Source: an uncultured delta proteobacterium (GTDB lineage Bacteria > Desulfobacterota > Desulfomonilia > UBA1062). Taken from it: DNA of 64,000 nt. The notes below the pieces were generated by a model. That model was not told the DNA's origin and did no database searches. It worked only from the letters and a program-made list of their open reading frames with translations. The position numbers were made by a program, and so were the translations under genes. The stretch covers positions 32,001-96,000 of the forward strand of contig CAWCTR010000014.1 in assembly GCA_963798485.1 (NCBI GenBank), given 5' to 3'. Every line of letters starts with the position of its first letter. Position 1 is the first letter of the stretch. Shown here piece after piece: positions 2,175 through 23,336 of the stretch.

Positions 2175-2945
2175 TCATGGCAACAACCCGACCTTCTCGA
2201 GGATGTGTGCGACCTTAACAAGAGCAGGTGAGGTTTCAGGCATGCCGGTCAGCGGTTCGCCCCTGAAGTCCAACGATCTGATCAGGTCATCGTCGTCAAG
2301 CCATCCGTACATTTCAAGGTCTGTCCTGCGCCTGATGTCGTCCACCTCGGAGAGGTCCCTCACCCTGTTGAGAACGAGCCCCATGCCCTTGAAGTCAACA
2401 GCCTTCTTCTCGTTCGCAACGTGCGCTATGGTATTAGCAACGCCAAGACCTTTTACCGAGGTGTCCGACACCAGGACCAGGTGGTCCACGGTCTTCATCA
2501 CCCGCCTGTTGATCTGCTCGATGCCCGCCTCTCCGTCGATGAGCACGATATCAAACCGGCAGGCAAGGTCACCTATGATATCCTTGAGGAGGTTGTTCAC
2601 CTTGCAGAAGCAGCCTTCGTCCTCAGGCCTGCCGATGGACAGGAGGGCGTATCCGTCACGCTCATGGAGGGCATCGAAGACCTCATAGTCCAGGAGCTTG
2701 AGAGTCTCCCGGCCACCCTGGAGCCCGCCTTTCCGGATGTCTGCAACCAGTCCCTTTCTGATGTCGTCAACGGTCTTTTTCACGGTAATGCCCAGGGCCG
2801 ATGCCAGTCCCACGGCCGGGTCCGCGTCTATGGCGAGGATCTTCCGCTCGTTCCCGCCGGCCAGCAGCTTCACCATGAGGGCCGCAACAGAGGTCTTGCC
2901 GACCCCCCCCTTGCCGCACAGCGCGATGATCTTTGTATCAGTCAT
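2175..2945 (-). CDS. cooC: CooC/AcsF-family nickel-insertion ATPase
   Basis: Deviant Walker A GKGGVGKT, IDADP, CxC metal site GRPEDEGCFC, DGEAGIEQINRR. Confidence 0.85.
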   Translation of the reverse strand: MTDTKIIALCGKGGVGKTSVAALMVKLLAGGNERKILAIDADPAVGLASALGITVKKTVDDIRKGLVADIRKGGLQGGRETLKLLDYEVFDALHERDGYALLSIGRPEDEGCFCKVNNLLKDIIGDLACRFDIVLIDGEAGIEQINRRVMKTVDHLVLVSDTSVKGLGVANTIAHVANEKKAVDFKGMGLVLNRVRDLSEVDDIRRRTDLEMYGWLDDDDLIRSLDFRGEPLTGMPETSPALVKVAHILEKVGLLP

Positions 2946-3619
2946 GCAATACCCCTCGTGGAGTTTATTTCCAGCGCTCTTTCTGTCTCCTCAAGGACAG
3001 TGACCGCCGACTCCGCATAACCATCCGCCCCGTACTTTTCTGCCAATTGCCGGTCCAGCGGGGCTCCGCCTACCATGATAACCGTCCCCGGGCACTTCTG
3101 TCTTATTGTTCTGATTATGTCCGGCATACAGACCATGGTTGTGGACATCATGGCCGACAGAGCCAGGATCTCGGCTTTATTTTCGAGAACTGCACGCCCG
3201 AACTCTTCTGCCCTCACCTGCACACCCAGATCAACAACCCGGTAACCGCATGCCCTGTATACCCCTGAAATTATGCTCTTGCCTAAATCGTGCGGGTCAC
3301 CCTCGACCACGCCTATGACGATGGTCAAAGCCCCCTTATCTCCGGCGTCTCCGAATTCAGAGAGTTTCGCCAGCCCCTGTGTCGCTGCATCGATACAGAG
3401 GAGGAATTCGGGCAAAGAGGTATGATTCGACATCAAATTCCTTCTCAGAAGGTTGAGACCATCGAGGATAGCGTGGCGCACATCTTTCGTGGAAAGACCG
3501 GAATCCATCGCTCTGGTCGTCAGCACCACGGTTTCATCCACCTGGTAAGCAGCTACCGCTGCTTCGATATTTTCCATAAGTCCAACTTCTCTCTTATCCA
3601 TCCGGGTCCCTCTTTTCAT
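2942..3619 (-). CDS. Corrinoid (B12-binding) protein, MtaC/MtbC-like
   Basis: N-terminal cap helices plus DxHxxG motif (GVVEGDPHDLGK), LSAMMSTT, MVGGAP, GADGY. Confidence 0.9.
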   Translation of the reverse strand: MKRGTRMDKREVGLMENIEAAVAAYQVDETVVLTTRAMDSGLSTKDVRHAILDGLNLLRRNLMSNHTSLPEFLLCIDAATQGLAKLSEFGDAGDKGALTIVIGVVEGDPHDLGKSIISGVYRACGYRVVDLGVQVRAEEFGRAVLENKAEILALSAMMSTTMVCMPDIIRTIRQKCPGTVIMVGGAPLDRQLAEKYGADGYAESAVTVLEETERALEINSTRGIA

Positions 3620-4782
3620 CTATACACCTCTACTGCCTTGACCATGGCATATGCATTTTCAAGGGGGGCATTCTGGGGGAACTCGCAGCCGGGTGAAAGG
3701 ATATAACCCCCGCCGGGAGCGAGGTCATCGATCTGTTTCCTGCATTCCTCCATGACATCGTAAGGGGTGCCGCGCGTCAGCAGCGGGGTGTCTATCATGC
3801 CAATCAGCACAATGTGGTCTCCATAACGTTTCTTCAGCTCCTTACGGTTCGAACAGTCGTCCGGGAGGTGTGCGAAGCTTATTGCACAGGGCTCCATGCT
3901 TCGAATCTGTGCATCGAAATAAATCCCGTGACCGCAGTTGTGCACACCCACCAGGCAACCCTTTCTTCGGATTGCCGAGGCTATTTCCCGCGCAAACGGC
4001 CCCTCGATCTTTTCCCAGAGCCCCTTTGACAACCCGTTCCATGATGCGAAGAGGGTGTCGATTACAACCATAACCACCCCGACGTCGCACTGCGCTTCTG
4101 CAAATTCAATGAGCACACCCGTGATGGCTTCACACGCTGCCATGACATCCCCGGGTTGAGTAACACAGTCCTTGAAGAGTTCCTGTGTCCCTCGCATCAT
4201 GTTGAGCACACCCAACGGGCCGAAAAGAAATCCGGCTACAAACCCTTTGAGGCCTATCCTGCGAACCATTATGGATAGCGCCTTGGCATGCCCCTGCATG
4301 CGTACGGCATGCTTGAAATCAATCGGCTTGAGCTTTCTGTAATCCTCAATGTTCTTGATCACAGGGTTCGCGTAGTCGGGATGTGCGGTAGAGTTGTCCG
4401 GGTAAATAACCTTCTGTCCGAAATCGGCGGCCTCTATTGAGAGGTCCACCAGTGCGACCAAGCCGTCACCGCCGATGAGATTGAACCCGGCCAGAAAGGA
4501 CTCCGCAGCAATTACGGGGTCGGCGCAGAACTCCGCATAGGTGTTTCCGATAAGCCGTCTGCCTGCGCCGCATATTATGGGGCAGCAGGGGACACGGTCC
4601 GGCTCCTTGTGCCGGAGAGTCACCAGCATCCTCTCGAAATTTGTAAGGTTGCTGATGCGTCCCCTGGCACTGCATAAGCCCCCTGCAGCATCCAGAATGA
4701 AATCCGGCAGCAACGCGGGCGAGGGGGGTATCCCTTCAGCAAGGGTCTTGAGTGCCCTCCAAATATCCTTTGTGTCAGCCAT
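3616..4782 (-). CDS. MtaA/CmuA-like (UroD-fold) methylcobamide methyltransferase
   Basis: EPDRVP, DLSIEAADFG, Zn ligands VHNCG and SPGCE; adjacent to the corrinoid protein gene. Confidence 0.85.
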   Translation of the reverse strand: MADTKDIWRALKTLAEGIPPSPALLPDFILDAAGGLCSARGRISNLTNFERMLVTLRHKEPDRVPCCPIICGAGRRLIGNTYAEFCADPVIAAESFLAGFNLIGGDGLVALVDLSIEAADFGQKVIYPDNSTAHPDYANPVIKNIEDYRKLKPIDFKHAVRMQGHAKALSIMVRRIGLKGFVAGFLFGPLGVLNMMRGTQELFKDCVTQPGDVMAACEAITGVLIEFAEAQCDVGVVMVVIDTLFASWNGLSKGLWEKIEGPFAREIASAIRRKGCLVGVHNCGHGIYFDAQIRSMEPCAISFAHLPDDCSNRKELKKRYGDHIVLIGMIDTPLLTRGTPYDVMEECRKQIDDLAPGGGYILSPGCEFPQNAPLENAYAMVKAVEVYR

Positions 4783-5512
4783 GCAGTGCCTCTTTTGATT
4801 TTTCCATGAGTTTATCCCTCATGCCTTTAAGTCCGTCGGCCTCATCGCACACATCCTGGTAGTCACAGCTCCCGCACTCAAAATCCATTTCCGAGGCCAT
4901 CTTGTTCATGGCAGCGATAATCTTCTCCGCAGGAACGGTGATCTCCTTGAGCCTGCGTACATCATCCGTGCTGGAGGTGAAGAAGATCACCTCCACAGCC
5001 TTCACATAGGGCCTGTCTCGAAAAAGTCTTATCAGTGATGAACCCAGGGTCCTGGCGGAGAAGCCGCGTGAGAGAGCATCGCGGCTGATCCTGCACCATT
5101 CCCTCATGTACTGGGACACCGCCCGCATCATGAACCCTTTGAGGTCGAGCTCGTAGCGGAGGAAATCCATGTCCTTGTGCCTGTCATAGGCATTGTCCTC
5201 GTCGAATCCCTCCACCCCTGCCAGCACTACCTTGCCGAAGGCCAGGCTCTTGCCCATGCACTCCGGGAAGTCCGGGCCCACCAGCGTTATCCTCCCGTCA
5301 GTGATACGTGAATGATCCCCGGTCCACAGGAGGCAGGATACGGAATCCATTTCCGGGCTGCCCAGTTCGAGTCCCATGTCCTCCTTCAGGACGATGTTCC
5401 TGCCCCCGCCTGGCGGCCACCCGTAATTCAAGGCCTCGATCCATGTCCTGCAAGAGGACCTTGTATCCACAAAGGTCCGCACCGCCTCGATGGTATGGTT
5501 AAAGAGCTCCAT
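4775..5512 (-). CDS. Short acetyl-CoA synthase beta-subunit (AcsB/CdhC)-like protein with C-terminal Cys motif
   Basis: LELGSP, ITDGRITLVGPD, LKGFMMRA..EWCRISRDAL.RGFS, VKAVEVIFFT resemble the ACS middle domain; ends CGSCDYQDVC. Start placed at ATG 5512. Confidence 0.7.
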   Translation of the reverse strand: MELFNHTIEAVRTFVDTRSSCRTWIEALNYGWPPGGGRNIVLKEDMGLELGSPEMDSVSCLLWTGDHSRITDGRITLVGPDFPECMGKSLAFGKVVLAGVEGFDEDNAYDRHKDMDFLRYELDLKGFMMRAVSQYMREWCRISRDALSRGFSARTLGSSLIRLFRDRPYVKAVEVIFFTSSTDDVRRLKEITVPAEKIIAAMNKMASEMDFECGSCDYQDVCDEADGLKGMRDKLMEKSKEALHG

Positions 5513-5519
5513 GGGCCGG

Positions 5520-6305
5520 TCACTTCCCCTTGCCGGCAGCCTGGCGGGCAATGAGTGCCGCACCCAGGGCCCCGATGATCTGCGGGTCGGTCGCTATCTT
5601 CCTGAGCTTCACCCCCAGGGCCTCCTCAAGGGCCGCGAACATGCCGATGTTTTTTGCCACCCCTCCGGTCATGGTGATTTCGCTTTCGAGCTCTATACCC
5701 CTGGCAAGAGCAGCCACCCGGTGGGCCAGTGACTTGTGCAGCCCCGCCACGATATCGGGGAGGTTGTTGCCTGCATTGATCAGCGAGATGATCTCCGTCT
5801 CTGCGAAGACCACGCACTGGTTGGAGATGGAAAGGGGGTTCTTTGCCGTGGAGGATATTTCTCCCATATCTTCGAGATTGACCCCCATTGCCCCTGACAT
5901 CACCTCCAGGAACCTGCCCGTGCCGGATGCACACCGGTCGTTATAGGCAAAACGGATGACATTGCCGCGCTCATCCAGCCTGATGGCCTTGGCGTCCTGA
6001 CCACCGATATCGATCACCATATGTACTTCAGGCATGAGCCACTGGGCCCCTTTGCCGTGGCATATGATCTCCGACTCCACGGCATCGGCAAAGGGGATGG
6101 AGTTCCTGCCGTAGCCCGTGCCCACGCAGTATGAGATGTCTGCCAGACAAAGCCCTGCCTTATCGAGGGCCTTTTCCATCACCTCCCGGGCCGAATCCCC
6201 GGGCTCGGGCCGTGCGAATATCACGTGCGAGGCCAGTACATCGCCATTCTTCATGATGAGGGCCTTGGCGCTCAAAGAGCCGACGTCACATCCTGCGGTA
6301 AACAT
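5520..6305 (-). CDS. Acyl-CoA dehydratase activase (HgdC/BcrA/D-type ASKHA ATPase) 1
   Basis: MFTAGCDVGSLSAKA, GTGYGR, IDIGGQD, DRCASGTGRF, QCVVFAE, TGGVAKN. Start at 6305 overlaps the upstream stop. Confidence 0.92.
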   Translation of the reverse strand: MFTAGCDVGSLSAKALIMKNGDVLASHVIFARPEPGDSAREVMEKALDKAGLCLADISYCVGTGYGRNSIPFADAVESEIICHGKGAQWLMPEVHMVIDIGGQDAKAIRLDERGNVIRFAYNDRCASGTGRFLEVMSGAMGVNLEDMGEISSTAKNPLSISNQCVVFAETEIISLINAGNNLPDIVAGLHKSLAHRVAALARGIELESEITMTGGVAKNIGMFAALEEALGVKLRKIATDPQIIGALGAALIARQAAGKGK

Positions 6306-7087
6306 TAATCCCCTCCCATCTTCTCTTTGGCAAATACGGCAGCCCCCAGGGCGCCCATGACCTGAGGGTCCACCCTGAGCCTGCGCATGGGCACGCCCAG
6401 CTGTTTTTCCATGGCCTCGAGCACCCCGGCGTTCTTTGCAACACCGCCAGTCATGCACACATCCTTCTCAACACCTACTGACTTGGCCAGGATCGCAATC
6501 CTGGCCGCCATGGCCTGGTTGATGCCAGAAGCCAGGTCTGCCTTTGAGGTGTTCGAGTTGAGATGCATAATGACCTCGGCCTGGGCCCAGGCCGTGCAGG
6601 TAGCAGCCAGGGTGATGGGGTTTCTGGCTTGTGCGGATAGGCTGCCAAGGTCGTCCAACTCCAGGCCGAGGAGTTTTGCCATGACCTCAAGGAACCTGCC
6701 GGTACCCGACGCGCACTTGTCATTGGTGATGAACCTGACGATGTTTCCCTTCTCATCGAGGCGGATGGCCTTGCAGTCCTGCCCTCCGATGTCGATGACG
6801 GTCCTCACCGATTGCAGGAGCCAGTGGGCGCCCTTGGCATGGCAGGCGATCTCGGAGACGGCCTTGCCCACAAAGGGTATCCGCTCCCTGCCATAACCGG
6901 TCCCTACGCAGAACCCGATGTCCTTCATGGTGAGCCCGGCAGTGCTCAATGCCATATCCATAACTTCAGGCGCGGATTTTTCAGGGTTGAAGGATGAGGG
7001 GATCAGCGCATGGCTGATGACACGAGTGTTGTTGAGGATCACCGCCTTGGTGGTCAGTGATCCCACGTCACAGCCTGCAACGATCAT
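6305..7087 (-). CDS. Acyl-CoA dehydratase activase 2
   Basis: MIVAGCDVGSLTTKA, GTGYGR, IDIGGQDCK, DKCASGTGRF, TCTAWAQ, TGGVAKN. True start about 7087. Confidence 0.92.
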   Translation of the reverse strand: MIVAGCDVGSLTTKAVILNNTRVISHALIPSSFNPEKSAPEVMDMALSTAGLTMKDIGFCVGTGYGRERIPFVGKAVSEIACHAKGAHWLLQSVRTVIDIGGQDCKAIRLDEKGNIVRFITNDKCASGTGRFLEVMAKLLGLELDDLGSLSAQARNPITLAATCTAWAQAEVIMHLNSNTSKADLASGINQAMAARIAILAKSVGVEKDVCMTGGVAKNAGVLEAMEKQLGVPMRRLRVDPQVMGALGAAVFAKEKMGGD

Positions 7088-8490
7088 GACAAAATCCCCC
7101 TTACGTGCATGAACTCGCTGATCTTGTCCACACAGTGCTCCCATGATGCGACCCTGTCGTCGAAGGCATCGGCAAAGAGCAGCATGGTCGGCAGGCCTTC
7201 GCGCTCGCAATCGCGCTGGATAAGCTTGTTCGCGCCCCAGCTGTTGCGGCACCCCATGCTCCCTACATAGACAAGGAAGTCGGGCTTCATGATCTTCGAC
7301 ATGAAGAGGAGGTCGTCGCGCCACATTCCTTTCGCGTCATACGGCCCCCTGAGCTGTTTGACCATGGGCATGCGGGAATTGAGATCTGCCAGGGAGTCGA
7401 TCATGGTGTCAAGGGTGGAGGTGTCTATATGGTAGGTCTCGTCTTCGCGGCCCTTTGTATATTCATGGCCCTCGTTCCAGAAGTTGAATATGAGTGTAGG
7501 CAGGAGGCTGATATCCTGGGAATCGACCCATTCCCAGAACCGTGCATCCGTGGTGTAGTGGTCGATGTAGCACATGAGGAGCCGTGCCCGCTCCTTTTTC
7601 GAACCCGTGCCGGCATACCCGTGTGCTGCATTTTCACGTACGACTTTGAGCATGGACTCGAGCACGGCGGTGTATGATTTCCTGCCCGGCATGCTAAGCC
7701 TTCCGGCATAGATGAACAGGGTGAAGATGGGAGGGACCGGGCATGGTCTGAGCCTCATGAGGTCATAGAGTTCGATAGCGAGCTCATCCTGGCGTTTTTG
7801 CTCTTCGAGGAGATCTTTCAGCTTGTCCTCGTTCAGGCGTGACCCCGATTGCTCCTCGATAAAGGAGATGAGGGCCTTGTAGTCCTTGCGGTGATAGTCG
7901 TCGATCCTCTCCCCCGTGAGCTTTGAGGGAAAGTTGAGCTGGAACATGGGGAGGTCGAGGTAGGATGAAAGAAATTGGACCGCATTGCCATTCGTATCGC
8001 AGATGCCGGGAGATCCGCAGATGAGAAAATCGGGCTTCTCGGCAAGGCCTGCCAGGTACGCCCCGAACGACCCGCGCTGGGCAGAGCAGGATGTCTCGGT
8101 GAATCCCACCTCGCAGCAATAGTCCATGTACTCGGCCGTACCCTTCCTCAGTACCAGCGTACCGAATACGGTCATGATCTCCGCCCAGGCGGGCACCACG
8201 TTGTCAAAGGCGAAAAGCAGGTGTTTTGCCGAGACAAAGGTGCCGAGGCACAGCTTCTTCCCCTGATCATGCGCGGTCATGACGTCGGTGAGGTATTCGG
8301 CCGCCATCTTCATGAAGAGCACGCCTGGCTCTCCGTGCCGTAACATCGCGCCCAGGACGTTCTTGAAGTTCGGTATGACCCGTTTCAGGCCTTCATACTC
8401 TTTTTGAGTCCCGTCAAGGGATGCTGCAGCAGCACTGATTGTGGACCAGAGCATCCAGTCGTAGTTATACTCGCGCGTTTCCTTCTTCAT
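7084..8490 (-). CDS. 2-hydroxyacyl-CoA dehydratase / BcrB-type subunit
   Basis: ETSCSAQRG, PGICDTN, GSMGCRN motifs; AGGAGG SD upstream of ATG 8490. Confidence 0.85.
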   Translation of the reverse strand: MKKETREYNYDWMLWSTISAAAASLDGTQKEYEGLKRVIPNFKNVLGAMLRHGEPGVLFMKMAAEYLTDVMTAHDQGKKLCLGTFVSAKHLLFAFDNVVPAWAEIMTVFGTLVLRKGTAEYMDYCCEVGFTETSCSAQRGSFGAYLAGLAEKPDFLICGSPGICDTNGNAVQFLSSYLDLPMFQLNFPSKLTGERIDDYHRKDYKALISFIEEQSGSRLNEDKLKDLLEEQKRQDELAIELYDLMRLRPCPVPPIFTLFIYAGRLSMPGRKSYTAVLESMLKVVRENAAHGYAGTGSKKERARLLMCYIDHYTTDARFWEWVDSQDISLLPTLIFNFWNEGHEYTKGREDETYHIDTSTLDTMIDSLADLNSRMPMVKQLRGPYDAKGMWRDDLLFMSKIMKPDFLVYVGSMGCRNSWGANKLIQRDCEREGLPTMLLFADAFDDRVASWEHCVDKISEFMHVRGILS

Positions 8491-8503: not shown

Positions 8504-9646
8504 TCAAACTGAGATCCTCTCCATAAAAGCATCAAGGCGCATCATGATCCTGCCCGTCTCCACCAGGGGGCCGTACTCTCTCTCGAGCCGCATGCAGGGG
8601 ATGCCTGCGGCCTCGAGGTCGCGCTCAAGCACACCGTTCTCCGAACCGTGAAGGTCGCAGAAGCGCACGTTCTGAAGGATGACTCCGTCTACCGAGGCCT
8701 TGTTCACGAGGTCCATGATGTAGGAGCGCCGGTCCTTGTAATAGCCGAGCATGCGCGGGCAAATGCTGTTGTTCAGATAATGTGAAGCAAGCGTATGGAC
8801 GGGGTCTGCCTTATCATCCACCAGGTTTGCATAGGTGCGTGACCCGAAGCATACGGTGTCTGCAACGACAATGGCGCCGCCATCCTCGACCAGCCTGATG
8901 AAATCCACATCGTCATTGGCGCTCCCGATAAGCATGAGGCGCTTCTTATGGTCCGATACGGACGGCGCCTTCTCAAGAGAGGCAATGATATCTTCGAGCA
9001 TGGTTCCCCAAACCTCGCGCGGCATGGCATGGCCTGCTATGAGGATTGCCATGGCATCCGATCCCGTGATGGGAACCTCCTCATGGTACCTGAGACCGTC
9101 GAGTTTATTCAAGAGAACCCTGCCCTGGTTGTAGACCTTGATGGATTTTTTCAGTGCCTTGTCCGTGATCTTGACCTTGAAGTGTTTTTCCAGGGTGGCG
9201 ATCATATCCTTGAGCTCTTGTGCGTAAAAATCGATGCTGTAATCCACTGACTTGTGAGGTACCGAGAAGTACTCATAGTATTCCGGCAGGGTGCCCGGGT
9301 AATCTTCGCTCGCCTTTCTCCAGCACTCCTCCAGCCTGCGCATGGAGTCACAGCCGTTACTGATGATGGCGCCGTCTAAAAACGTATACGAACCCTGCCC
9401 TGCGAGCTGAAGCATGCACTTTGGCAGGCTGCAGTTTACCGGACCGAAGTATGAATCACCGATGGAGACTTTCGTGGTGCCGACACCGCGTAATCTGAAG
9501 GGAAGCAGCCCTGCGGCATGAAGGATCTCTTCGGGTATGAAGGTGCACGAGTAACCCACAACCTTGCCCCCGTCCTTCTTCCACTTCTGTATAAATTCAT
9601 TATTCAAGCCCGTTGCAGCACTTTGAAGTTTATCCATCATTTTCAT
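8504..9646 (-). CDS. 2-hydroxyacyl-CoA dehydratase / BcrC-type subunit
   Basis: VGYSCTFIPEE, NCSLPKC, NGCDSMRR, ICPRM, RFCDLHG, RLDAFME; paralogous to 991-2124. Confidence 0.9.
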   Translation of the reverse strand: MKMMDKLQSAATGLNNEFIQKWKKDGGKVVGYSCTFIPEEILHAAGLLPFRLRGVGTTKVSIGDSYFGPVNCSLPKCMLQLAGQGSYTFLDGAIISNGCDSMRRLEECWRKASEDYPGTLPEYYEYFSVPHKSVDYSIDFYAQELKDMIATLEKHFKVKITDKALKKSIKVYNQGRVLLNKLDGLRYHEEVPITGSDAMAILIAGHAMPREVWGTMLEDIIASLEKAPSVSDHKKRLMLIGSANDDVDFIRLVEDGGAIVVADTVCFGSRTYANLVDDKADPVHTLASHYLNNSICPRMLGYYKDRRSYIMDLVNKASVDGVILQNVRFCDLHGSENGVLERDLEAAGIPCMRLEREYGPLVETGRIMMRLDAFMERISV

Positions 9647-9649: not shown

Positions 9650-10933
9650 TCACCCCCTGCTGCCTGCGGCCAGGGCTGTCCTTAAAGACTCCATGGCCTG
9701 CTTGTGCTCCGGACTCGCATAGCCCTCATCAGGGCTTATCAGCTCACTTAAGGACTTGATGAAAAGCGGCATCACGGTTGTTGCCAGGGGCTTGATGGCA
9801 GCAACCACATCGGGGACCATCCATTGGACAGTTCTTTTGATCTCTTCGGAATCCAAGGAATCTACTACCCCGCTCAAGGTGTTGCTTACGATGTCCGGCT
9901 TGGCATCATGGATCCTGTTCGCGACCCTGCATGCAGTATTCACGAGGCCGGCTATCTCGTAGGTGTCAAGATCCGACATGCTCTCGGATACAGCCGCCTT
10001 CAGGCCATCAGGGTCGATCTCCTCGATGATGCCTAGTTTGCGGGATTGAGCTTTGATGTCGGAGGTCTTCATTGACCCAAGAGATGCCAGGCAGGATAAG
10101 GTTATTTCGGGATTGTCAGTGAGTGCCTCTGCCATGGCATTTGCTATGGCCCCCCTGTCCTGGGCGAATATGATGCGGATCTTTTTCGCCAGCTCCGGGT
10201 CCATCTCAGGGAGGCAGTCATGGAGAAAGTCAGTGAGGTAGATCTGGAACAGGGGCTTGCCGCCCTTTCCGAGCAGGAGGCTGCCGGTGTGGACCCTGCG
10301 GATGACCTCGCATACGGAATTGATGAGCTTTGCGGTGTCCGCGCCGTTGATACCCTTGATGACGGAGAGCATGATGTCTGCCAGCAGGTCGGGGCCGATT
10401 TTCTTCTCGATGGGGACCAGGATCTCTCGGGAACCTTTTATGAAGGTGTTTATAAGTGGGATGATGGTCGCAACCAGGGTACCCACCTTGGCAGGGTATT
10501 TCCAGAGCTGCTCGTTGAAAGCCTCCAGGGTCTTGATCACGTACGGGTCCGATCCTTCAACCATCTCCCTGATCTCGCCGAAGTCGGTATTCTTCAGGAA
10601 GCTGTGGATGGCATCACCGCGCGTTCCGATGCGACAGGCGGTATCAGCCGCATGGTCGGCATTGACCTTCTTCGCCCATACGGTCAGGAGCCTGCCCACA
10701 TCGGCTGATATACCTTTATTGTTCCCATTTTTGCCCGGCCGCAGGAGTCTTGACACGATCCATTTGGCGCTAGGGGCAATCCTGGCCCTGATACCACCCT
10801 TGTCCGCCCATGAGTTGATAAGGTCTTTAACGAGCTCGGCAAGTAAGGTCTTGGTGCCCGAAGCACGTATGATCTCTGTGATGATCCTGGCAGAGACCTG
10901 TGCAAGTTCATCTTTATTTTCAGTGGTATTCAT
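9650..10933 (-). CDS. Hypothetical alpha-helical repeat protein
   Basis: 427-aa ORF co-oriented inside the operon, GGGAGG SD; internal repeat shared with the two smaller ORFs upstream. Confidence 0.75.
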   Translation of the reverse strand: MNTTENKDELAQVSARIITEIIRASGTKTLLAELVKDLINSWADKGGIRARIAPSAKWIVSRLLRPGKNGNNKGISADVGRLLTVWAKKVNADHAADTACRIGTRGDAIHSFLKNTDFGEIREMVEGSDPYVIKTLEAFNEQLWKYPAKVGTLVATIIPLINTFIKGSREILVPIEKKIGPDLLADIMLSVIKGINGADTAKLINSVCEVIRRVHTGSLLLGKGGKPLFQIYLTDFLHDCLPEMDPELAKKIRIIFAQDRGAIANAMAEALTDNPEITLSCLASLGSMKTSDIKAQSRKLGIIEEIDPDGLKAAVSESMSDLDTYEIAGLVNTACRVANRIHDAKPDIVSNTLSGVVDSLDSEEIKRTVQWMVPDVVAAIKPLATTVMPLFIKSLSELISPDEGYASPEHKQAMESLRTALAAGSRG

Positions 10934-10938
10934 CCTTA

Positions 10939-11613
10939 TTAACCTCCCGAGTCATCTATTTCTGATTCAGCTCTCGCCTTTTTCCCTGCTTCAGATAAAT
11001 ACGATTCGAACATGGTGTTGCTGAGCGAAGTGAGCATGCCGATGGCCTCTTCCCGGGTAAATTTCTCCTCCATGAGAAAGCTGTGGCCGAGGTGCATGGC
11101 CATGCCTACCACTGCATAGGCCAGGGTATGGGGATTCACCTTGGCGATGATGCCGATATCCAGCCATACCTGGATGTCATCGGCCAGGTCCTGGGCGATG
11201 TCGCTGTAGTGGCGCCATACATTTCCGTCCAGTTCCTCGTCGATGCCGAAGCTGCCGCGAAGCAGGATGAGGAACTGCTGGCGGTGGCTGTTGATGTAGT
11301 CGAAATAGGCGGTATAAGTCTCATCGAGTTTTGCCAGGCGATCGATGCGATCCCATATGTTCACCGGTTCCCGGAGCTTCTTGATGCGGGCCCTGAAGTC
11401 TTCGAAATTCCGGGAGGTGAGCTGTTCGAACAGGTCTCTCTTGTCCTTGAAGTAATTATAAAAGGTGCCGGCTGACATGCCAGCAGCCTTGACGATGTCC
11501 ATGACCTGGGTGTTGTGGTACCCGTGCTGGCTGAAAAGCTCCTCAGCCGCCTCGATGATCATGTCCTTGGTGTACTGTCGTTTTTTCTCTATAAGACTAG
11601 CCATCTGTTCCAT
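10939..11613 (-). CDS. TetR/AcrR-family transcriptional regulator
   Basis: IIEAAEELFSQHGYHNTQVMDIVKAAGMSAGTFYNYFKDKRDLF helix-turn-helix. Confidence 0.93.
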   Translation of the reverse strand: MEQMASLIEKKRQYTKDMIIEAAEELFSQHGYHNTQVMDIVKAAGMSAGTFYNYFKDKRDLFEQLTSRNFEDFRARIKKLREPVNIWDRIDRLAKLDETYTAYFDYINSHRQQFLILLRGSFGIDEELDGNVWRHYSDIAQDLADDIQVWLDIGIIAKVNPHTLAYAVVGMAMHLGHSFLMEEKFTREEAIGMLTSLSNTMFESYLSEAGKKARAESEIDDSGG

Positions 11614-11637
11614 TTCCTCGCCGATAATTTAAACTGT

Positions 11638-11720
11638 GTAGGAGCGCCTTCAGGCGCGATAAGCAACGGCCGCAGCTTTAAGCCGTATCTGCTCTCCATC
11701 GCGGCTTAAGCCGCTCCTAC
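11638..11720. repeat. GTAG-family REP pair (REPIN)
   Basis: gtaggagcgccttcaggcgcgat ... atcgcggcttaagccgctcctac; a second copy lies at 17423-17477. Confidence 0.85.
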
Positions 11721-12370
11721 GATTTATTCAATCTTTTGCGAACCCTGCCTTTTACAAGCTGCCATGCCCACGAGATGAGGCGCCACTTCTGGTCAAGGAA
11801 TGCCCCGGCCAGGGTAAGGGAGGCCTTGCTGACCTCCGGGCCGTCGATGTTCCTGAGCACCGAAGCGATGAAGGTGCTGAAGGCCTGCGGATTGTTATGG
11901 GTTACCGCGTTGACGAACCGCGCCAGGGAGTTGATGGCCCCTGCCTTTATCTTGGGGCCTGAAGAGAGGATGAATCCCGCGGCAGCCTGCCTGAGTTCAG
12001 GTGATGCACTCCACAGGGAAGAGAGCAACTCCATCCATCTTTTTCCGCATTGTCTGGCTGCATCCTTGTCGATGTCCTCGGCCAGGCTCATGAGGAACGA
12101 TTTCAGCATCTCGGGGGGATACTTGTCTTTGAGCTGGACGGCGAGCTCAGTGAATGCACTGATCAGGGTATTGATAAGCACGGGCAGGCTGCTGATGAGG
12201 TCGAAGAAGACCTCAGGGTCCTGGCCGAGAAGGGTTTTCACCATCTGACTGCCGGTTTTGGGATCCATCTCGTTCAGGTTCACCCTGAGTATGTCCTTAA
12301 ACAGGGGAGAACGGATGAGCTCTCTCAAGATGCCTGACCTATCCCTGGTGGGTGATTCCCTATGCATCAT
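11717..12370 (-). CDS. Hypothetical protein (paralogue of 12367-12798)
   Basis: ELIRSPLFKD.LR..L..MDP.TGSQMVKTLLGQDPEV aligns by eye with ELFAKTAFKDSLRLFLKSIDPDSSPQLVRTLLGTDIEV. Confidence 0.75.
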   Translation of the reverse strand: MMHRESPTRDRSGILRELIRSPLFKDILRVNLNEMDPKTGSQMVKTLLGQDPEVFFDLISSLPVLINTLISAFTELAVQLKDKYPPEMLKSFLMSLAEDIDKDAARQCGKRWMELLSSLWSASPELRQAAAGFILSSGPKIKAGAINSLARFVNAVTHNNPQAFSTFIASVLRNIDGPEVSKASLTLAGAFLDQKWRLISWAWQLVKGRVRKRLNKS

Positions 12371-12798
12371 AAACCCCCCTTATCCTGGACAGACTTTCCC
12401 TCCATGGCCCTTAAGGCAACCAGGAAGACAGGTTCCAGATCCTTACCCAGGTCCCTTATTTCCGTGATGAGACGGGCAAGGGTATCCTTGTCTATGTCTT
12501 GAAGGAGCGATTCCACAAAGCCTGCAAGCAAAGGCGGTGGGAACTTCCCTCGCACCTGCACGACGAGCTCCATGCCTGCCTTGATAAAGCAATTCGCGAT
12601 AGCAGGAAGCGCCCCCACCACGGCCAGGGGCACCTCGATATCCGTGCCCAGCAATGTTCGTACGAGCTGTGGGCTGCTGTCCGGATCTATGCTCTTCAGG
12701 AAAAGGCGAAGGCTGTCTTTGAAGGCGGTCTTTGCGAAAAGCTCTTCGAGGACCCTGCTCCTGGATTCGATCAATCCTGTGTTCGTGGTTTCTTCCAT
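12367..12798 (-). CDS. Hypothetical protein (paralogue of 11717-12370)
   Basis: GAGGTG SD; overlapping start/stop with the next gene; shared motif. Confidence 0.75.
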   Translation of the reverse strand: MEETTNTGLIESRSRVLEELFAKTAFKDSLRLFLKSIDPDSSPQLVRTLLGTDIEVPLAVVGALPAIANCFIKAGMELVVQVRGKFPPPLLAGFVESLLQDIDKDTLARLITEIRDLGKDLEPVFLVALRAMEGKSVQDKGGL

Positions 12799-12807
12799 GG
12801 CATCACC

Positions 12808-14082
12808 TCACAGGGTTTCACAGTTGAAAAAGTATCTGGCGGCCTCCATCTGGCAGAGCTGCTTGCCGCCCATCCAGAGCTGAACGATCTTCACATCCCG
12901 CCAGTGCTTCTCGATGTCCCAGTCGCGGTCTGCACCATAGTGACCGAGCACGTCCATGGCCTTGCCGAAGCATTCGATGGCCCGGTCGGACACGAAGTCC
13001 TTGATGTTGCGGATCCTTCCCACCACGTCTTCCGAGATCAGCGGCTTGCCATAGGGCTTGTTCCTGCGGTCGCCGATCATGGCCGCCTCATGACCGAGGA
13101 TGCGGCAGATGTCGATGTCGCCGGCAATACGACCGATAATGGCGGCAATGGCATCATTTTCCTTTAAGGGACGATTGTTGTAGGTTCGGGTAGACACAAA
13201 TTCGTACAGTCTTTCATACAGGTTCAGCATGGCGCCGGTAAGGAACGAACAGCTCATGACCTGTCCGAAGGATATGAGCTGGTAAAAGGCCTCGGCGTCT
13301 TTGCCCGGACCGTGTGCCCGGTACCAGCTGGGTACGCGGACATCCTCGAACCATATATCGCCGTTCTTATCCGCAGCCATGCCCGCCTTTTCGTAGGCCC
13401 CGCCCTGGGTAACACCCGGTAAGTCGGCAGGGACAAAGATAAAGGCAAAATCCTTAGGGTCGCTGGAGCCGAGCTTGGTGGTGCATGGAACGCCGAAGAG
13501 CTTCGAGACCCCGCCGGAGTTCGTGGGCCAGAGCTTATGGCCGTTGATCACCCATTCGTCACCATCGAGGCGGGCCGTGGTGCGGATGGTTTTGCCTCCC
13601 AGCAGGCCAAGGTTCTCGATGTCAGCCCCGCCTTGTGGCTCGGTCATGGCATTGGCTGCAAACACGGCCTTCTTTGCATTGCAGAACATGGGTGCAAACT
13701 CGGCTATGAGCCGCTCGTTCTCGTAGGGCTCCACCATGATCACGAGCAGGGGCCAGAAGGTTACGGCCAGTGCCACTGCCATGCCCGTATCCGCCCTTCC
13801 GAGCTCCTCGCAGAGCATGTACCCAACCCGGAAGACATAATCTGACTTTGCCAAGCCCCAACCGCCGTACTCCTGGGGAAAGAGAGATTTTTGAAGACCC
13901 AGGTCGGCCATGAGTTTGTCAAAGGCGGGTTCTATGAAGTGGTGGTCCTTCCAGTCCTCGTCGTATTTGCGGCGCTCGGGCATGACCCATTCATCAATAT
14001 GCTTCCTGATGAGGCGCCTGAAATGCTTGTCGAAGGGGGATATGTATTCCTCGGGGCGTGAAAATTCATCGAAATGGTTCAT
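12808..14082 (-). CDS. Acyl-CoA dehydrogenase family protein
   Basis: AMTEPQGGAD, WVINGHKLWPTN, FEDVRVP, GHYGADRDWDIEKHWRDVK. Confidence 0.92.
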   Translation of the reverse strand: MNHFDEFSRPEEYISPFDKHFRRLIRKHIDEWVMPERRKYDEDWKDHHFIEPAFDKLMADLGLQKSLFPQEYGGWGLAKSDYVFRVGYMLCEELGRADTGMAVALAVTFWPLLVIMVEPYENERLIAEFAPMFCNAKKAVFAANAMTEPQGGADIENLGLLGGKTIRTTARLDGDEWVINGHKLWPTNSGGVSKLFGVPCTTKLGSSDPKDFAFIFVPADLPGVTQGGAYEKAGMAADKNGDIWFEDVRVPSWYRAHGPGKDAEAFYQLISFGQVMSCSFLTGAMLNLYERLYEFVSTRTYNNRPLKENDAIAAIIGRIAGDIDICRILGHEAAMIGDRRNKPYGKPLISEDVVGRIRNIKDFVSDRAIECFGKAMDVLGHYGADRDWDIEKHWRDVKIVQLWMGGKQLCQMEAARYFFNCETL

Positions 14083-15665: not shown

Positions 15666-16349
15666 TTACGTTAAAGAGGCATTGGCGCTCTGTTGCCTTG
15701 TTATTTCCAGGGCCTTCCTGCCCTCTTCGGTGAGATACGCCTCGAACATGGCGAGAACCATCTTTATCAGGTTTTCAATGATTTCTTTGCGCGTGTACTG
15801 CTTTTCAACAAGATAGTTGTGGATAAGCTGGAGACTCATGCCGATAACGGCAGTCCCGAACATCATAGGGTCTATCCCTTCGATGACCCCCATGTTTATC
15901 CACTTCGCCAGATCTTCGCTTGCATCATAGGCGAAACCCTGAAAATATTTCCATACATTTACATCCAGGTCCGTGTCGATGCCGAAACTCCCCCTCAAGA
16001 TCATAAGGAGCTGTTGGGGGTTGTTGTCAACGTAATCAAAGACAGCGTTAAATGTCGCCAGCAGTGTCTTTGCCCTTTCCTCATGATTCCAGATATCAAC
16101 CGGCTCACGCATGAGCTTTACTGTTATCCTGAGGCTCTCGAGACTTTCCATGGTGATCTGCTCGAAGAGGTCTCTCTTGTCTTTGAAATGATTATAGAAT
16201 GTTCCGGCAGACATGCCCACAGCCTTGACAATGTCCATAACCTGGGTGTTATGGTACCCGTATTTGCTGAAAAGCTCGCATGCAGCCTCGATGATCTTTT
16301 CCTTGGTCTCTTCTCTTCTTTTATCTGATGTCTTTGCCATGTTTTCCAA
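15666..16349 (-). CDS. TetR/AcrR-family transcriptional regulator (paralogue of 10939-11613)
   Basis: Near-identical HTH ELFSKYGYHNTQVMDIVKAVGMSAGTFYNHFKDKRDLFEQ; AAGGAG SD before TTG start. Confidence 0.93.
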   Translation of the reverse strand: MENMAKTSDKRREETKEKIIEAACELFSKYGYHNTQVMDIVKAVGMSAGTFYNHFKDKRDLFEQITMESLESLRITVKLMREPVDIWNHEERAKTLLATFNAVFDYVDNNPQQLLMILRGSFGIDTDLDVNVWKYFQGFAYDASEDLAKWINMGVIEGIDPMMFGTAVIGMSLQLIHNYLVEKQYTRKEIIENLIKMVLAMFEAYLTEEGRKALEITRQQSANASLT

Positions 16350-16391
16350 CTAACTCCTTGAAAGGGAAGCATAAATACATTTTATTGCGGA

Positions 16392-16420
16392 AGAATATGT
16401 CCTAAGGGTCAAGATGTCAA
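16392..16420 (-). promoter_or_regulatory. sigma70-type promoter of the tetR gene
   Basis: TTGACA (16420-16415), 17 nt, TATTCT (16397-16392). Confidence 0.55.
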
Positions 16421-16547
16421 GTCAAATGCTTGTGATGATGTACTCCGTAAGGATATGGACGTCATACTTAATTCATGGTACTCACCTTCGATAGTAATAT
16501 TCAAGCTACTGCAAGCGAAGTCAAAAATTATGTGAGGAAAAAAAGCT

Positions 16548-17312
16548 ATGAGGCGCTTCAGTATTACCGTCACAGTATGTTTTATTCTTGGGTTATTTAT
16601 TGCGGTAGTTGCACCAACGGTTCTATGGTCGGCAGCCCCAATGAAAACTATTGTTATAGCAACAGATGCCACTTGGCCTCCTATGGAGATACTCGATGCC
16701 AACAAAAATATCGTCGGGTTTGACATAGACCTCTTAAATGCCGTGGCCAAAGAGGCAGGATTCAAGGTGGAGCTCAAGAACACCGCGTGGGATGACATCT
16801 TTGGCGGACTTGATCTTGGCAAATATAACGCCATCATCTCGTCGGTCACCATCACGGATGAGCGCAAAAAGAAATACGACTTCTCTTTGCCTTACATCAA
16901 TGCAGGTCAGGTGCTTGTAGTACCCAAGACCACAAAGGGCGTGAAGAAGGTCGCTGACATGAAAGGCAAAAAGATAGGAGCTCAGATCGGTACCACCGGC
17001 GCCATGGAAGTACAGAAAATCAAAACCGTCGAACTCAAGAATTATGACGAGATTGGCCAGGCCTTTGAAGACATGGCTGTGGGCAGGATCGATGGTTTAG
17101 TGTGCTACACGACTGTGGCTGCTGACTATGCATTGCAGAGGGCAGAGTACAAGGCCAAATTCATGATAGTTGGCGAGCCTTTCACCAAAGAACAGTACGG
17201 GATCGTGGTTAAGAAGGGCAACAAGCAGTTGCTCGACCTTCTCAACAAGGGCATCAAGGCAGTGCAGAAAAAAGGCTTAGACAAAGAGATTGAAAAGAAG
17301 TGGCTGAGATAG
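16548..17312 (+). CDS. Polar/basic amino-acid ABC transporter substrate-binding protein (SBP family 3)
   Basis: Signal peptide; ATDATWPPME, GFDIDL, ITDERKKKYDFSLPY, GAQIGTTG, EQYGI. Confidence 0.92.
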   Translation: MRRFSITVTVCFILGLFIAVVAPTVLWSAAPMKTIVIATDATWPPMEILDANKNIVGFDIDLLNAVAKEAGFKVELKNTAWDDIFGGLDLGKYNAIISSVTITDERKKKYDFSLPYINAGQVLVVPKTTKGVKKVADMKGKKIGAQIGTTGAMEVQKIKTVELKNYDEIGQAFEDMAVGRIDGLVCYTTVAADYALQRAEYKAKFMIVGEPFTKEQYGIVVKKGNKQLLDLLNKGIKAVQKKGLDKEIEKKWLR

Positions 17313-17331
17313 GCTTCAGAAAGAAGAAAAA

Positions 17332-17426
17332 GATAGAGGTATCATCCTTGAAGATGTTCACCCGAGCACTTCTTCAAGAATCCTACACATGAGCGTGCAC
17401 AGCAGTTTATGAGGCAGATCCTGTAG
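17332..17426 (+). pseudogene. C-terminal remnant of a GlnQ-like amino-acid ABC ATPase
   Basis: DRGIILED / frameshift / SPEHFFKNPTHERAQQFMRQIL* matches the typical end of polar amino-acid ABC ATPases; no start codon and no permease gene. Confidence 0.75.
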
Positions 17427-17477
17427 GAGCGTTTTCAGGCGTGACTGGACCGGAATCGCGGCTGAAACCGCTCCTAC
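17423..17477. repeat. GTAG-family REP pair (REPIN), copy 2
   Basis: gtaggagcgttttcaggcgtga ... atcgcggctgaaaccgctcctac. Confidence 0.85.
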
Positions 17478-17544
17478 AATATTAGGGTTACAGCTCCTAA
17501 ATCATTGACAACTCCCCAATGTGTATGCCAAAAACATCACCTGT

Positions 17545-17616
17545 GCCAGCGTAGCTCAGTGGTAGAGCAGCTGATTCGTAATCAGCAGGTCCGGGGTTCG
17601 ACCCCCCGCGCTGGCT
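17545..17616 (+). tRNA. tRNA-Thr(CGT)
   Basis: GCCAGCG acceptor stem pairs with CGCTGGC; TAGCTCAGTGGTAGAGC D arm; CTGAT-TCGTA-ATCAG around the anticodon; GGTTCGAC T loop; CCA not encoded. Confidence 0.95.
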
Positions 17617-17676
17617 TAGTATTTAAGCCAATCTATAGACAATTACACAATTCAATTTAATCTACTGGAGGTAGAG

Positions 17677-17796
17677 ATGAAGAAGCTTTTCATGCAAATT
17701 ATAGTTCTCGGCATTCTGGCTGGCGTTGGATACCTTGCTTGTAAAAAGTTTTGCAATAAGGGCAATTGTAGTTGCAGTGGCAAAAAAGAGGCTTAA
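17677..17796 (+). CDS. Small Cys-rich membrane peptide (39 aa)
   Basis: GGAGGT SD; MKKLFMQIIVLGILAGVGYLACKKFCNKGNCSCSGKKEA. Below the ORF-track cutoff. Confidence 0.6.
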   Translation: MKKLFMQIIVLGILAGVGYLACKKFCNKGNCSCSGKKEA

Positions 17797-18151
17797 AACA
17801 TAAATCGTATAAGTTGACTTTCAAATCTTAAAACCAACATATCAGTTCCCACCCTCCTCACATAAAAAATCAGGCCATTTGCTGGCCTGATAAAGAGGAG
17901 GTTCTACGGGGAATGAATCTTGAAGAACCTACTATACTCATCGGCGTAAATCGGATTTGCATGAGTATCGTTATGATCACCCAAATTCTATCGCGTTCCC
18001 CATCTCCACAGAGATCCCACCATTCAAATACGAGGGTACCGGGAGGCATCCACACGATACAGCATTAGAGAGTATATCTGCATTAAATCTTGATCATGGC
18101 CGGGCGGCGATTATATTTAGAAATATACAAAAGGAGCAAAGCGTAAAGGAT

Positions 18152-18711
18152 CACCCATTAAAAGGCCCCTGTCAATAAAAACATAGTTCACCATCGCACA
18201 TTTTTTTGCAGGTCTAACGTACAGCCAGCTTGGACCATTCCAATGATTCCTTTTCTGCGCCCTGTTTTTCGGTATTTATGGTTGCGATACGATCCGCACC
18301 AGGCACCCATCCGGCTTTAGACTGTACAATGAGAGGATGAGATTAGAGGAGTAGCCCTCTCAACCTGCACGTCCCTGACAGCATCTGCTGTCCCAGAAAA
18401 ATATCGGTTCCTTGCCATGTTCAATTGTGAGTTACACGATAAAAGGCTCTTCCGGCCACACCATAAAGACTCATGGCAAAGGCAGATCTGAACCATAGAA
18501 AGTTCCTCGCTGAATTCTTGTTTATATGAGAGGGGGAAACGGCGGAGCAACTACAAAAATGGTTCTTAGCCACCAAACACACAGTCTCGCCGCTTTCCCC
18601 TGCTCAGCAAAAGAGCATCTCTTCCTTGAACTCAACTCCATCCCTGAGGATATAGTAGCAGGCCCTGGCCAGCTTACTTGCTATGGTCTTGACCGCTACC
18701 ATCATATTAGA
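18152..18711 (-). mobile_element. IS110-family remnant: transposase C-terminus, about 450-nt 3' non-coding region and right end
   Basis: 18705-18604 reads MMVAVKTIASKLARACYYILRDGVEFKEEMLFC*, the typical IS110 C-terminus. The element ends TTGACAGGGGCCTTTTAATGGGTG with an outward-facing -35. Confidence 0.8.
18200..18603 (-). ncRNA. Putative IS110/IS1111 bridge (seek) RNA region
   Basis: Several stem/internal-loop/hairpin modules; one loop carries ATGGGTG (18310-18304), identical to the element end (18158-18152). Boundaries approximate. Confidence 0.55.
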
Positions 18712-18747
18712 CATATCATCCGAATCCGTTTGCATGAGGAGGCAATT

Positions 18748-19146: not shown

Positions 19147-19195
19147 AAAACCCAACTTAGTTCGTCGCCTATGGTAGAGGATGTTACTATGAGAG

Positions 19196-22848: not shown

Positions 22849-22868
22849 ATGATTCCCTATAGTTGTTC

Positions 22869-23231: not shown

Positions 23232-23336
23232 AGTATTTTATTAGTTAGGGATACAAAATATCCCCATTATCTATCTCATCCACATGCGTATGTATCATCC
23301 TAAAGCTCAGATACTCCATTCTTAAGTACAACAATT

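Follow-up and report, generated by a model that had tools for sequence, protein, structure and literature searches.

A stand-alone homologue of the acetyl-CoA synthase middle domain, paired with a CooC-type ATPase in operons of ATP-driven HGD-D/BcrAD enzymes

What is a fragment of acetyl-CoA synthase (ACS) doing in an operon that holds no carbon monoxide dehydrogenase (CODH)? The work of ACS and of its Ni insertase is seen as confined to CO2 fixation and acetate cleavage, and CooC and AcsF are the maturation factors responsible for ATP-dependent Ni insertion in CODH and ACS. The question is raised by a gene for a small ACS-like protein, here called mini-ACS, in a 64,000-nucleotide (nt) stretch of DNA (the window) from an uncultured delta proteobacterium (GTDB lineage Bacteria; Desulfobacterota; Desulfomonilia; UBA1062; GenBank assembly GCA_963798485.1, contig CAWCTR010000014.1, positions 32,001 to 96,000). 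A sequence-only reading of the window had described a stand-alone ACS middle-domain protein with its own cysteine tail and a dedicated CooC beside it, and had proposed that it is a small metalloprotein or an adaptor for a corrinoid partner encoded nearby. The answer developed here is that mini-ACS and the CooC-type ATPase form a conserved two-gene module which would act as an accessory of ATP-driven HGD-D/BcrAD enzymes, the type to which benzoyl-CoA reductases and 2-hydroxyacyl-CoA dehydratases belong, a reading to which, with its mechanism included, we give a probability of about 0.45; the family itself, its architecture and its gene association, as read from sequence, are highly probable. 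In short, the pair would be a reduced form of ACS and AcsF that has been transferred to another enzyme system, and it would serve neither CODH nor corrinoid methyltransferases. The genes on which this argument turns are as follows.

4775..5512, minus strand: mini-ACS (CdhC-small), 245 amino acids (aa), ACS A2-like domain and C-terminal C-x2-C-x5-C tail
4847..4876, minus strand: codons of C213-G-S-C216-D-Y-Q-D-V-C222 (CGSCDYQDVC), from alignment to ACS and conservation
2175..2945, minus strand: CooC/AcsF-type P-loop ATPase, 256 aa, GKGGVGKT and C112-F-C114
5520..6305, minus strand: BcrAD/BadFG-type (HgdC-like) ATPase 2, putative start taken from MFTAGCDVGS
6305..7090, minus strand: BcrAD/BadFG-type ATPase 1, putative start, from Pfam and NCBIfam
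7084..8490, minus strand: HGD-D subunit (HadB/BzdO-like), ~468 aa, Pfam HGD-D 138.6 bits
8504..9646, minus strand: HGD-D subunit (HadC/BzdN-like), 380 aa, Pfam 288.7 bits
991..2178, minus strand: second HGD-D module, subunit d (like BzdN or the double-cubane protein), 395 aa
3..968, minus strand: second HGD-D module, subunit e, running off the window start

The open reading frame (ORF) of mini-ACS covers 4775-5563 on the minus strand (262 aa), and the ATG at 5512, which gives the 245-aa protein, is the start common to its homologues, all of which begin MELF...; it lies 7 nt past the stop of the upstream BcrAD-type ATPase gene (5520). Pfam CdhC (PF03598) matches residues 57-198 of the 262-aa ORF with 44.2 bits (cut-off 24), and the protein does not reach the whole-protein cut-offs (356-809 bits) of the NCBIfam ACS/CdhC equivalogs, against which it scores 46.1 vs 372, 39 vs 800, 34.6 vs 356 and 33.6 vs 809 bits. 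A phmmer search of the PDB placed mini-ACS residues 41-190 on 17-163 of CdhC (9c0s_E, E=2.3e-9) and residues 28-197 on 322-484 of M. thermoacetica ACS (1oao, E=1.7e-8). The AlphaFold2 model, built with 21 homologues, reached a mean predicted local distance difference test (pLDDT) of 83.1 and a predicted TM score (pTM) of 0.83, and Foldseek returned 23 PDB matches for it at E<=0.001 (best E=9.9e-12, TMq 0.56; the first match beyond the 23 had E=0.29), those listed being all ACS or CODH/ACS. There is no A1 domain and nothing of A3 beyond its first ~30 residues. Mini-ACS therefore reads as a homologue of the middle (A2) domain of ACS only, and the description of a stand-alone middle-domain protein, structurally similar to ACS and devoid of the CODH-docking domain and of most of the A-cluster domain, was borne out.

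The A-cluster of ACS is held by four [4Fe-4S] cysteines and a Cys-Gly-Cys for Ni, in the C-terminal A3 domain. Cys506 and Cys509 of M. thermoacetica ACS are the first two of the [4Fe-4S] ligands, with Cys509 also bridging to the proximal Ni, and Cys595 and Cys597, absent from mini-ACS, are the Ni ligands for methyl acceptance. When a profile of the mini-ACS family was compared with the PDB, ACS chains were found at E~2e-19, and the alignment ran through A2 into the "SCVLCQ" of M. thermoacetica ACS, with the family's "DCesCe" placed on it, before ending at residue 509 of 3i04 (510 of 1oao). On this alignment, C213 and C216 are the counterparts of Cys506 and Cys509. Compared with ACS (AcsB/CdhC; PF03598; 1oao, 3git, 9c0s), mini-ACS thus shares the A2 fold, the core ELG, GPD and W-x-R-[IV]-S motifs, the last of which aligns with INWLRVSK of ACS, and the first two A-cluster cysteines (C506, C509), but it lacks A1, most of A3, Cys528 and the Cys595-Gly-Cys597 Ni site. 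The complete A-cluster ligand set is accordingly not found, the alignment to ACS stopping at Cys509 and only three cysteines being conserved. CGSCDYQDVC occupies residues 213-222, and the motif reported earlier is therefore real, although the protein does not end in it, as had been claimed, since 23 residues follow C222.

How widespread is such a protein? A search for homologues of near-equal length gave 218 proteins at E<=1e-3, and of the 120 listed almost every one has 240-250 aa; a profile search of 1.84 billion cluster representatives gave 646, 484 and 155 at E<=1e-3, 1e-10 and 1e-30, respectively, with all of the 155 at ~230-270 aa, and a profile search of a word-indexed database gave 801 proteins at E<=1e-20. 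In the sources they are called nothing more specific than "hypothetical protein" or "CO dehydrogenase/acetyl-CoA synthase beta subunit". The window protein has the traits of this family, namely a length of ~230-270 aa, an A2 domain and a C-x2-C-x5-C motif near the C-terminus. For the family alignment (alignment A2), those of 150 listed representatives with 225-275 aa were taken together with the query, which left out fragments and long outliers and gave 121 rows, of which 119 were aligned. Each of C213, C216 and C222 is found in 118 of these 119 diverse members and their spacing is likewise kept in 118, with a median of 19 residues past the third cysteine, so that the conservation of all three cysteines, on which the earlier proposal depended, holds across the family. 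R141 (115 of 119), R130 (110) and W139 (95) are also well conserved, as is an acidic residue, D or E, at position 212 (106), which could act as a fourth ligand of the site. C60 and C140 had been considered as extra ligands, being invariant in 21 close homologues; across the 121 family rows a Cys stands at these positions in only 10 and 31 cases, respectively, and they are therefore not family ligands. In C. autoethanogenum ACS, acetyl-CoA is, according to a preprint, bound mainly by A2, where its adenine stacks on Trp405 and its diphosphate sits on a patch of Lys and Arg residues (10.1101/2024.08.05.606187). By its position offset in the profile alignment, W139 is probably the counterpart of this Trp405.

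No fused forms of 430-2000 aa were found at E<=1e-10, which is weak evidence by the search tool's own note. Look-alike clusters in the ESM Atlas, which serve as a lead only, are named "CO-methylating acetyl-CoA synthase family protein", are ~245 aa long and are commonest in Bacillota or Thermodesulfobacteriota. A full-text literature search (supplements not included) found no description of the function of the small family or of its pairing with CooC. Excerpts of a 2015 paper list PF03598 among the Pfam families with stand-alone "partial" domains and give UniProt B8FZT4 as carrying the CATH 3.30.1650.10 part alone, and make no functional statement on it (PMC4443539); cultured carriers of the family, such as the source of B8FZT4, therefore probably exist. 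What is new in the window is the complex model and the insertion of a gene cassette with a junction repeat, both of which are described below.

None of the ORFs of the window that were scanned (sets of 12, 3 and 42) matched the Prismane/CODH family, in agreement with the earlier statement that no CODH is present, and mini-ACS sits there among HGD-D/BcrAD genes instead of in a CODH or corrinoid iron-sulfur protein context. The canonical locus of the same genome is found on another contig (C19), with ACS (216 bits), CODH (549 bits) and two CooC paralogues. Across 401 sampled genomes of the phylum, the small family (at least 118 bits, open frames of ~220-550 aa) was found in 48 places in 34 genomes, and full ACS reached at most 83 bits with frames of ~420 or ~740 aa; many of the 34 carrier genomes have no second, ACS-type match. 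The occurrence of the mini-ACS family appears independent of Wood-Ljungdahl genes.

The gene neighbourhood in relatives shows what mini-ACS travels with. Two sets of loci were compared, in which neighbouring genes were called by tblastn and phmmer with the window proteins: a close set of 23 loci at 55-79% identity, from a genome-collection scan and belonging to metagenome-assembled genomes (MAGs) of Desulfomonilia, Syntrophales and Smithellaceae type, and a divergent set of 20 of the more divergent of the 48 small-family places (34-225 bits). The order in the close loci is acyl-CoA dehydrogenase, 143-aa protein, 217-aa protein, TetR regulator, 427-aa protein, HGD-D a, HGD-D b, BcrAD ATPase 1, ATPase 2 and mini-ACS, followed by CooC, HGD-D d and HGD-D e. 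HGD-D genes are present in 22 of the 23 (the exception, L019, is a 5.8-kb contig ending inside mini-ACS) and a CooC-like gene in 21, the contigs of L002 and L019 ending too early. Among the 20 divergent loci, HGD-D is found in 19 (not L075), a BcrAD ATPase in 18 (not L058 or L075) and a CooC-like gene in ten; URO-D methyltransferase genes are found in two (L063, L064) and a corrinoid protein in none. The constant context of mini-ACS is therefore the set of genes for ATP-driven HGD-D/BcrAD enzymes, partners that the sequence-only reading had left unnamed, and its frequent second partner is a CooC-type ATPase.

Some of the divergent loci show other neighbours. In L068 (8701-9366), L069 (7360-8031) and L071 (8796-9464) the gene after mini-ACS encodes not CooC but a ~222-aa protein without a Pfam match, which may be an alternative partner; next comes a PALP-family enzyme, to which L068 and L069 add an aldehyde dehydrogenase. 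In L065 (5003-6955) an enzyme with Oxidored_FMN and Pyr_redox_2 domains, of the old-yellow-enzyme type and likened to 2,4-dienoyl-CoA or naphthoyl-CoA reductases, adjoins the CooC/mini-ACS pair.

The CooC-type ATPase of the window has both the SIMIBI P-loop with deviant Walker A and the CxC metal motif, and its best PDB match is CooC1 (3kje, E=2.8e-18), with the CxC aligned. All 31 CooC-like neighbours of mini-ACS carry C[FY]C, ~101 residues past the P-loop. The genome has four CooC-family genes, namely the window copy, the two beside CODH/ACS on C19 and a fourth on contig C5, and the window copy is 35-38% identical to the other three; with two of the four beside the canonical locus, it is best seen as an extra, dedicated paralogue, as the sequence-only reading had supposed.

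A complex of the two proteins was modelled by folding the window CooC (alignment A3, 21 rows) with mini-ACS (alignment A1). The median score was 0.75, from three runs at 0.75, 0.75 and 0.17, and the best of three controls scored 0.00; the score mark is one reached by 116 of 157 solved complexes and by 2 of 215 mismatched pairs, counts that are rough here as custom alignments were used. At least 34% of the contacts recur between runs, and the partners have pLDDT of at least 80. We know of no solved CooC-ACS or AcsF-ACS complex, and the passing score is therefore probably not a memory of a solved structure. In the modelled interface, CooC residues 83-100, including D86 and Y87, face mini-ACS residues 38-44, 113-120 and 130-139, including R130 and W139; D86 and Y87 are family-specific and invariant in alignment A3. 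Mini-ACS is thus predicted to bind the CooC-type ATPase, and on balance we expect this prediction to hold. The earlier idea of a small metalloprotein with its own CooC is plausible and has gained partial support, from the paralogue count and the model; the metal could be Ni, an Fe-S cluster or Zn.

Considering how this pair relates to characterised systems, the likeness to AcsF/CooC with ACS/CODH (CooC1, 3kje) lies in a deviant-Walker-A CxC ATPase being encoded with an ACS-derived protein, to which the complex model predicts it to bind. The differences are that the client lacks the Ni ligands of ACS and that the window ATPase has the invariant D86 and Y87 at the modelled interface. With the class I benzoyl-CoA reductase BzdNOPQ, the 2-hydroxyacyl-CoA dehydratases with their HgdC-type activators and the double-cubane cluster protein, the window shares the families of the catalytic subunits and of the ATPases, but the characterised systems of this kind are not known to include an ACS fragment or CooC. 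Excerpts of two papers on them mention neither (PMC11971306, PMC12016498), and those of the second do not mention nickel either.

The mechanism envisaged for the module would begin with the docking of the CooC-type ATPase on the conserved A2 face around R130 and W139, as in the complex model. By analogy with CooC and AcsF, which act on CODH and ACS, the ATPase would then use ATP to load a metal centre at Cys213, Cys216 and Cys222, which could be Ni or else an Fe-S cluster whose fourth ligand is open or acidic. Once loaded, mini-ACS might serve the radical enzyme as a CoA-thioester-binding metallo-subunit or as an electron relay, a last step that is suggested by gene context. The A2 domain may still bind CoA, and all known HGD-D enzyme substrates are CoA thioesters. 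The separate parts of this proposal deserve different degrees of belief: a redox-active or Ni-containing site in mini-ACS is a tentative suggestion with somewhat less than even odds, and it is doubtful that mini-ACS is a stable subunit and not a maturation factor.

The module is found in many anaerobes from sediments, peat and digesters. Should this reading be right, cut-down descendants of ACS and its Ni insertase would be a conserved accessory of Fe-S radical enzymes which, driven by ATP, reduce or dehydrate acyl-CoA thioesters. A metallated site would point to a cofactor or subunit that has gone unrecognised in the HGD-D/BcrAD enzyme class, and it may help to explain why some members of the class have resisted heterologous production.

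Several observations weigh against the proposal. The cysteine tail, from about residue 210, is the lowest-confidence part of the AlphaFold2 model (pLDDT 55-65). With three conserved cysteines, mini-ACS does not have the four ligands of ferredoxin-type [4Fe-4S] proteins, which leaves a canonical [4Fe-4S] site incomplete, and the Ni-binding Cys-Gly-Cys of ACS is missing, the protein ending 23 residues past C222. One of the three complex runs scored only 0.17, and in the model both the CxC of CooC and the cysteine tail of mini-ACS lie outside the confident interface. Ten of the 20 divergent loci have no CooC-like gene within the stretch fetched, which means that mini-ACS does not strictly need CooC in cis. 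All 20 divergent loci retain W139, R130 and R141, with or without a CooC gene nearby, and this retention does not tell CoA binding from CooC docking. The two divergent loci with a URO-D gene after mini-ACS (L063 and L064, below) make some functional relation to URO-D-type enzymes, and with it a link to methyl transfer, conceivable. BzdNO gained its [8Fe-9S] and aqua-[4Fe-4S] clusters on production in E. coli, as excerpts of one report describe (PMC11971306), and enzymes of this type would therefore not in general need such helpers. Lastly, beyond homology, everything said about metal, CoA binding and protein contacts is inferred from sequence and models.

Of the alternatives, the one that survives best is that mini-ACS and CooC are a maturation pair, a transient scaffold and an insertase for building or repairing a special metal cluster of the adjacent HGD-D subunits, and stand outside the working enzyme; we consider this rather unlikely. 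CooC and AcsF are themselves maturation factors, and the mini-ACS and CooC genes sit between two HGD-D modules. Mini-ACS is also the least conserved of six core genes in 8 of 14 loci (median identity 69.8%, vs 71-78% for the others), as is typical of accessory factors; this slightly lower conservation fits an accessory role but does not separate a subunit from a maturation factor. The formation of [8Fe-9S] and [4Fe-4S]-OH2 clusters on BzdNO in E. coli without such factors (PMC11971306, from excerpts) speaks against it, and it offers no explanation for the use of a CoA-binding domain as a scaffold.

A dedicated low-potential electron carrier, in which the three-cysteine site holds a [4Fe-4S] cluster and feeds the bridging cluster of the BcrAD/HgdC-type ATPases in place of ferredoxin, seems improbable. 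In its favour, a BcrAD ATPase gene directly precedes mini-ACS both in the window and in the majority of the 23 close loci, as it does in eight divergent ones (L060, L062, L068-L071, L073 and L074), and by the family-profile alignment the three cysteines descend from ACS [4Fe-4S] ligands; yet only three are conserved, a ferredoxin needs neither a 200-residue domain of CoA-binding type nor a CooC-type ATPase, and Fer4 ferredoxin genes are already present in the cluster.

It is quite improbable that mini-ACS has gone further and, with an Ni site loaded in the manner of AcsF, carries out ACS-type organometallic or thioester chemistry on acyl-CoA together with the ATP-driven radical enzyme. Possible reactions would then be the activation of the acyl-S-CoA bond or, in variants that bear the cassette described below, such as that of the window, an exchange of methyl groups with the corrinoid protein. 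A-cluster-like Ni chemistry would then have a second use in biology, apart from the Wood-Ljungdahl pathway.

No better are the chances of a metal-free or Zn-only relic, in which the cysteines form a structural zinc knuckle and the protein acts as a sensor of CoA or acyl-CoA, or as a purely structural subunit. Three cysteines with D or E at position 212 (106 of 119) would suit a Zn site, and the A2 residues that contact CoA in ACS are kept, but a CooC-type ATPase with its CxC intact in 31 of 31 neighbours and the modelled complex argue for a metal that is actively loaded.

The last alternative concerns two genes that, in the window, separate mini-ACS from CooC.

3616..4782, minus strand: URO-D methyltransferase, MtaA/CmuA-like, 388 aa, begins MADTK, in the inserted cassette
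2942..3619, minus strand: corrinoid (B12-binding) protein, 225 aa, DxHxxG (DPHDLG), in the inserted cassette
4768..4793, unstranded: 26-nt imperfect direct repeat, left copy, at the junction of mini-ACS stop and URO-D start
2931..2956, unstranded: 26-nt direct repeat, right copy, at the junction of corrinoid-protein stop and CooC start

The methyltransferase matches Pfam URO-D with 193.7 bits, the NCBIfam MtaA/CmuA subfamily with 94 bits, below its cut-off, and MtaA in the PDB (4ay7, E=5.3e-12); the corrinoid protein matches Pfam B12-binding with 82.8 bits, an MtbC-like NCBIfam model with 112 bits, again below cut-off, and PDB entries 1y80 (2e-23) and MttC 7xcn (7e-21). The genes for mini-ACS, URO-D, corrinoid protein and CooC lie on the same strand, each overlapping the next by 4-8 nt, from which we infer that they are co-transcribed. 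In having an MtaA-like URO-D methyltransferase and an MtaC/MttC-like DxHxxG corrinoid protein, the window resembles MtaABC-type and O-demethylase-type systems, but its operon has only one methyltransferase and no RamA/RACE-type activator, and its proteins fall below the NCBIfam cut-offs and are embedded as an insertion in a radical-enzyme operon.

Outside the window, URO-D and corrinoid genes between mini-ACS and CooC were found in only three of the 23 close loci (L002, L003 and L022), and constant co-occurrence of mini-ACS with a corrinoid protein and a methyltransferase was not found across the 23 close and 20 divergent loci. A single MAG provides L003, L004 and L022 as three copies of the cluster, of which L003 and L022 have the cassette and L004 does not. 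In the loci without it, the start of CooC overlaps the stop of mini-ACS by 8 nt. The direct repeat has 81% identity and a spacing of 1837, and it is the largest repeat family in 2850-4850. A junction motif, GCATG.CTGA.AC.A, is present in all seven aligned junctions, including the undisturbed mini-ACS/CooC junctions of L001 and L007. The two junctions of the cassette are copies of each other, and in consequence both URO-D (MADTK) and CooC (MTDTK) begin M-[AT]-D-T-K. Taken together, the repeat and the shared junction motif indicate that a 1,837-bp cassette was inserted exactly in the mini-ACS/CooC overlap, duplicating the junction and keeping translational coupling. The window and L003 share 71-77% identity in the genes from upstream as far as mini-ACS, and 93, 86 and 91% in URO-D, the corrinoid protein and CooC, a difference which suggests that this right-hand block has moved as a unit. 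As a flanked insertion, the cassette argues that the corrinoid protein is not the reason why mini-ACS exists; it is a lineage-specific add-on, secondary to the mini-ACS module, and illustrates how a gene junction of the module can take up a new function while keeping translational coupling. In L021 and L022 several genes are found as fragments in different frames, which may be assembly frameshifts or pseudogenes.

That mini-ACS is an adaptor or methyl acceptor, standing to the corrinoid protein as ACS does to the corrinoid iron-sulfur protein, is on these grounds very improbable: although ACS is generally known to take a methyl group from a corrinoid protein, mini-ACS in the window is translationally coupled to the MtaA-like methyltransferase and corrinoid genes, and URO-D family genes follow it in L063 and L064, the URO-D and corrinoid genes are absent from 20 of 23 close loci and the corrinoid protein from all 20 divergent ones, the cassette is a flanked insertion and the methyl-accepting Ni ligands of ACS (Cys595/Cys597) are missing, so that the corrinoid adaptor of the sequence-only reading is not supported as the function of the family. 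The genes in L063 (8829-9911) and L064 (8999-10045) belong to a different URO-D subfamily (70-74 bits to that of the window), directly follow mini-ACS with no corrinoid protein nearby, and represent a second, independent juxtaposition of URO-D with mini-ACS.

Turning to the remaining genes of the operon, BcrAD-type ATPase 2 scores 191 bits with Pfam and 244 bits, above cut-off, with the NCBIfam acyl-CoA dehydratase activase, and the HGD-D subunit at 8504..9646 is at about equal distance from HadC (3o3m_B, 1.3e-38) and BzdN (8s02_B, 5.7e-38) in the PDB. Upstream of these lies one further conserved block.

9650..14082, minus strand: conserved upstream operon part, with a 427-aa protein, a TetR regulator, 217-aa and 143-aa proteins and an acyl-CoA dehydrogenase

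The 427-, 217- and 143-aa proteins of this block (9650-10933, 11717-12370 and 12367-12798, minus strand) have no Pfam or NCBIfam match; most of the 23 close loci have them in the same order upstream of HGD-D, with identities of 29-84%, and the 217-aa and 143-aa proteins are, judged by eye, alike in their N-terminal halves.

No sequencing run was found that holds at least half of the sampled words, the best DNA runs having shares of 0.38 and 0.29. One metatranscriptome run (share 0.05) contains contigs 85-95% alike to parts of the operon, among them one of 689 nt that spans the junction of corrinoid protein and URO-D (3369-4057) with 55 differences. Being contigs, and from relatives, they are no evidence that the window operon is transcribed or co-transcribed.

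The AFOR family includes BamB of class II benzoyl-CoA reductase, and a member is found beyond the window start, where the operon continues downstream on the same contig (L026 12677-17323, the stretch next to window position 1) with a 436-aa protein that carries a 2x[4Fe-4S] domain (Fer4) and a third BcrAD-type ATPase, followed by a 674-aa AFOR-family protein (BamB-like) and a 154-aa poly-ferredoxin with four clusters. Class-I-like and class-II-like types of ring-reductase genes are thus found together in one cluster. Farther into the window, 16000-28000 has a low GC content (0.35-0.47 vs 0.51-0.57 around it) and encodes a DegT-type aminotransferase, a GT2 glycosyltransferase, a GNAT acetyltransferase and a 772-aa TPR protein, and this region has the look of a surface-polysaccharide island.

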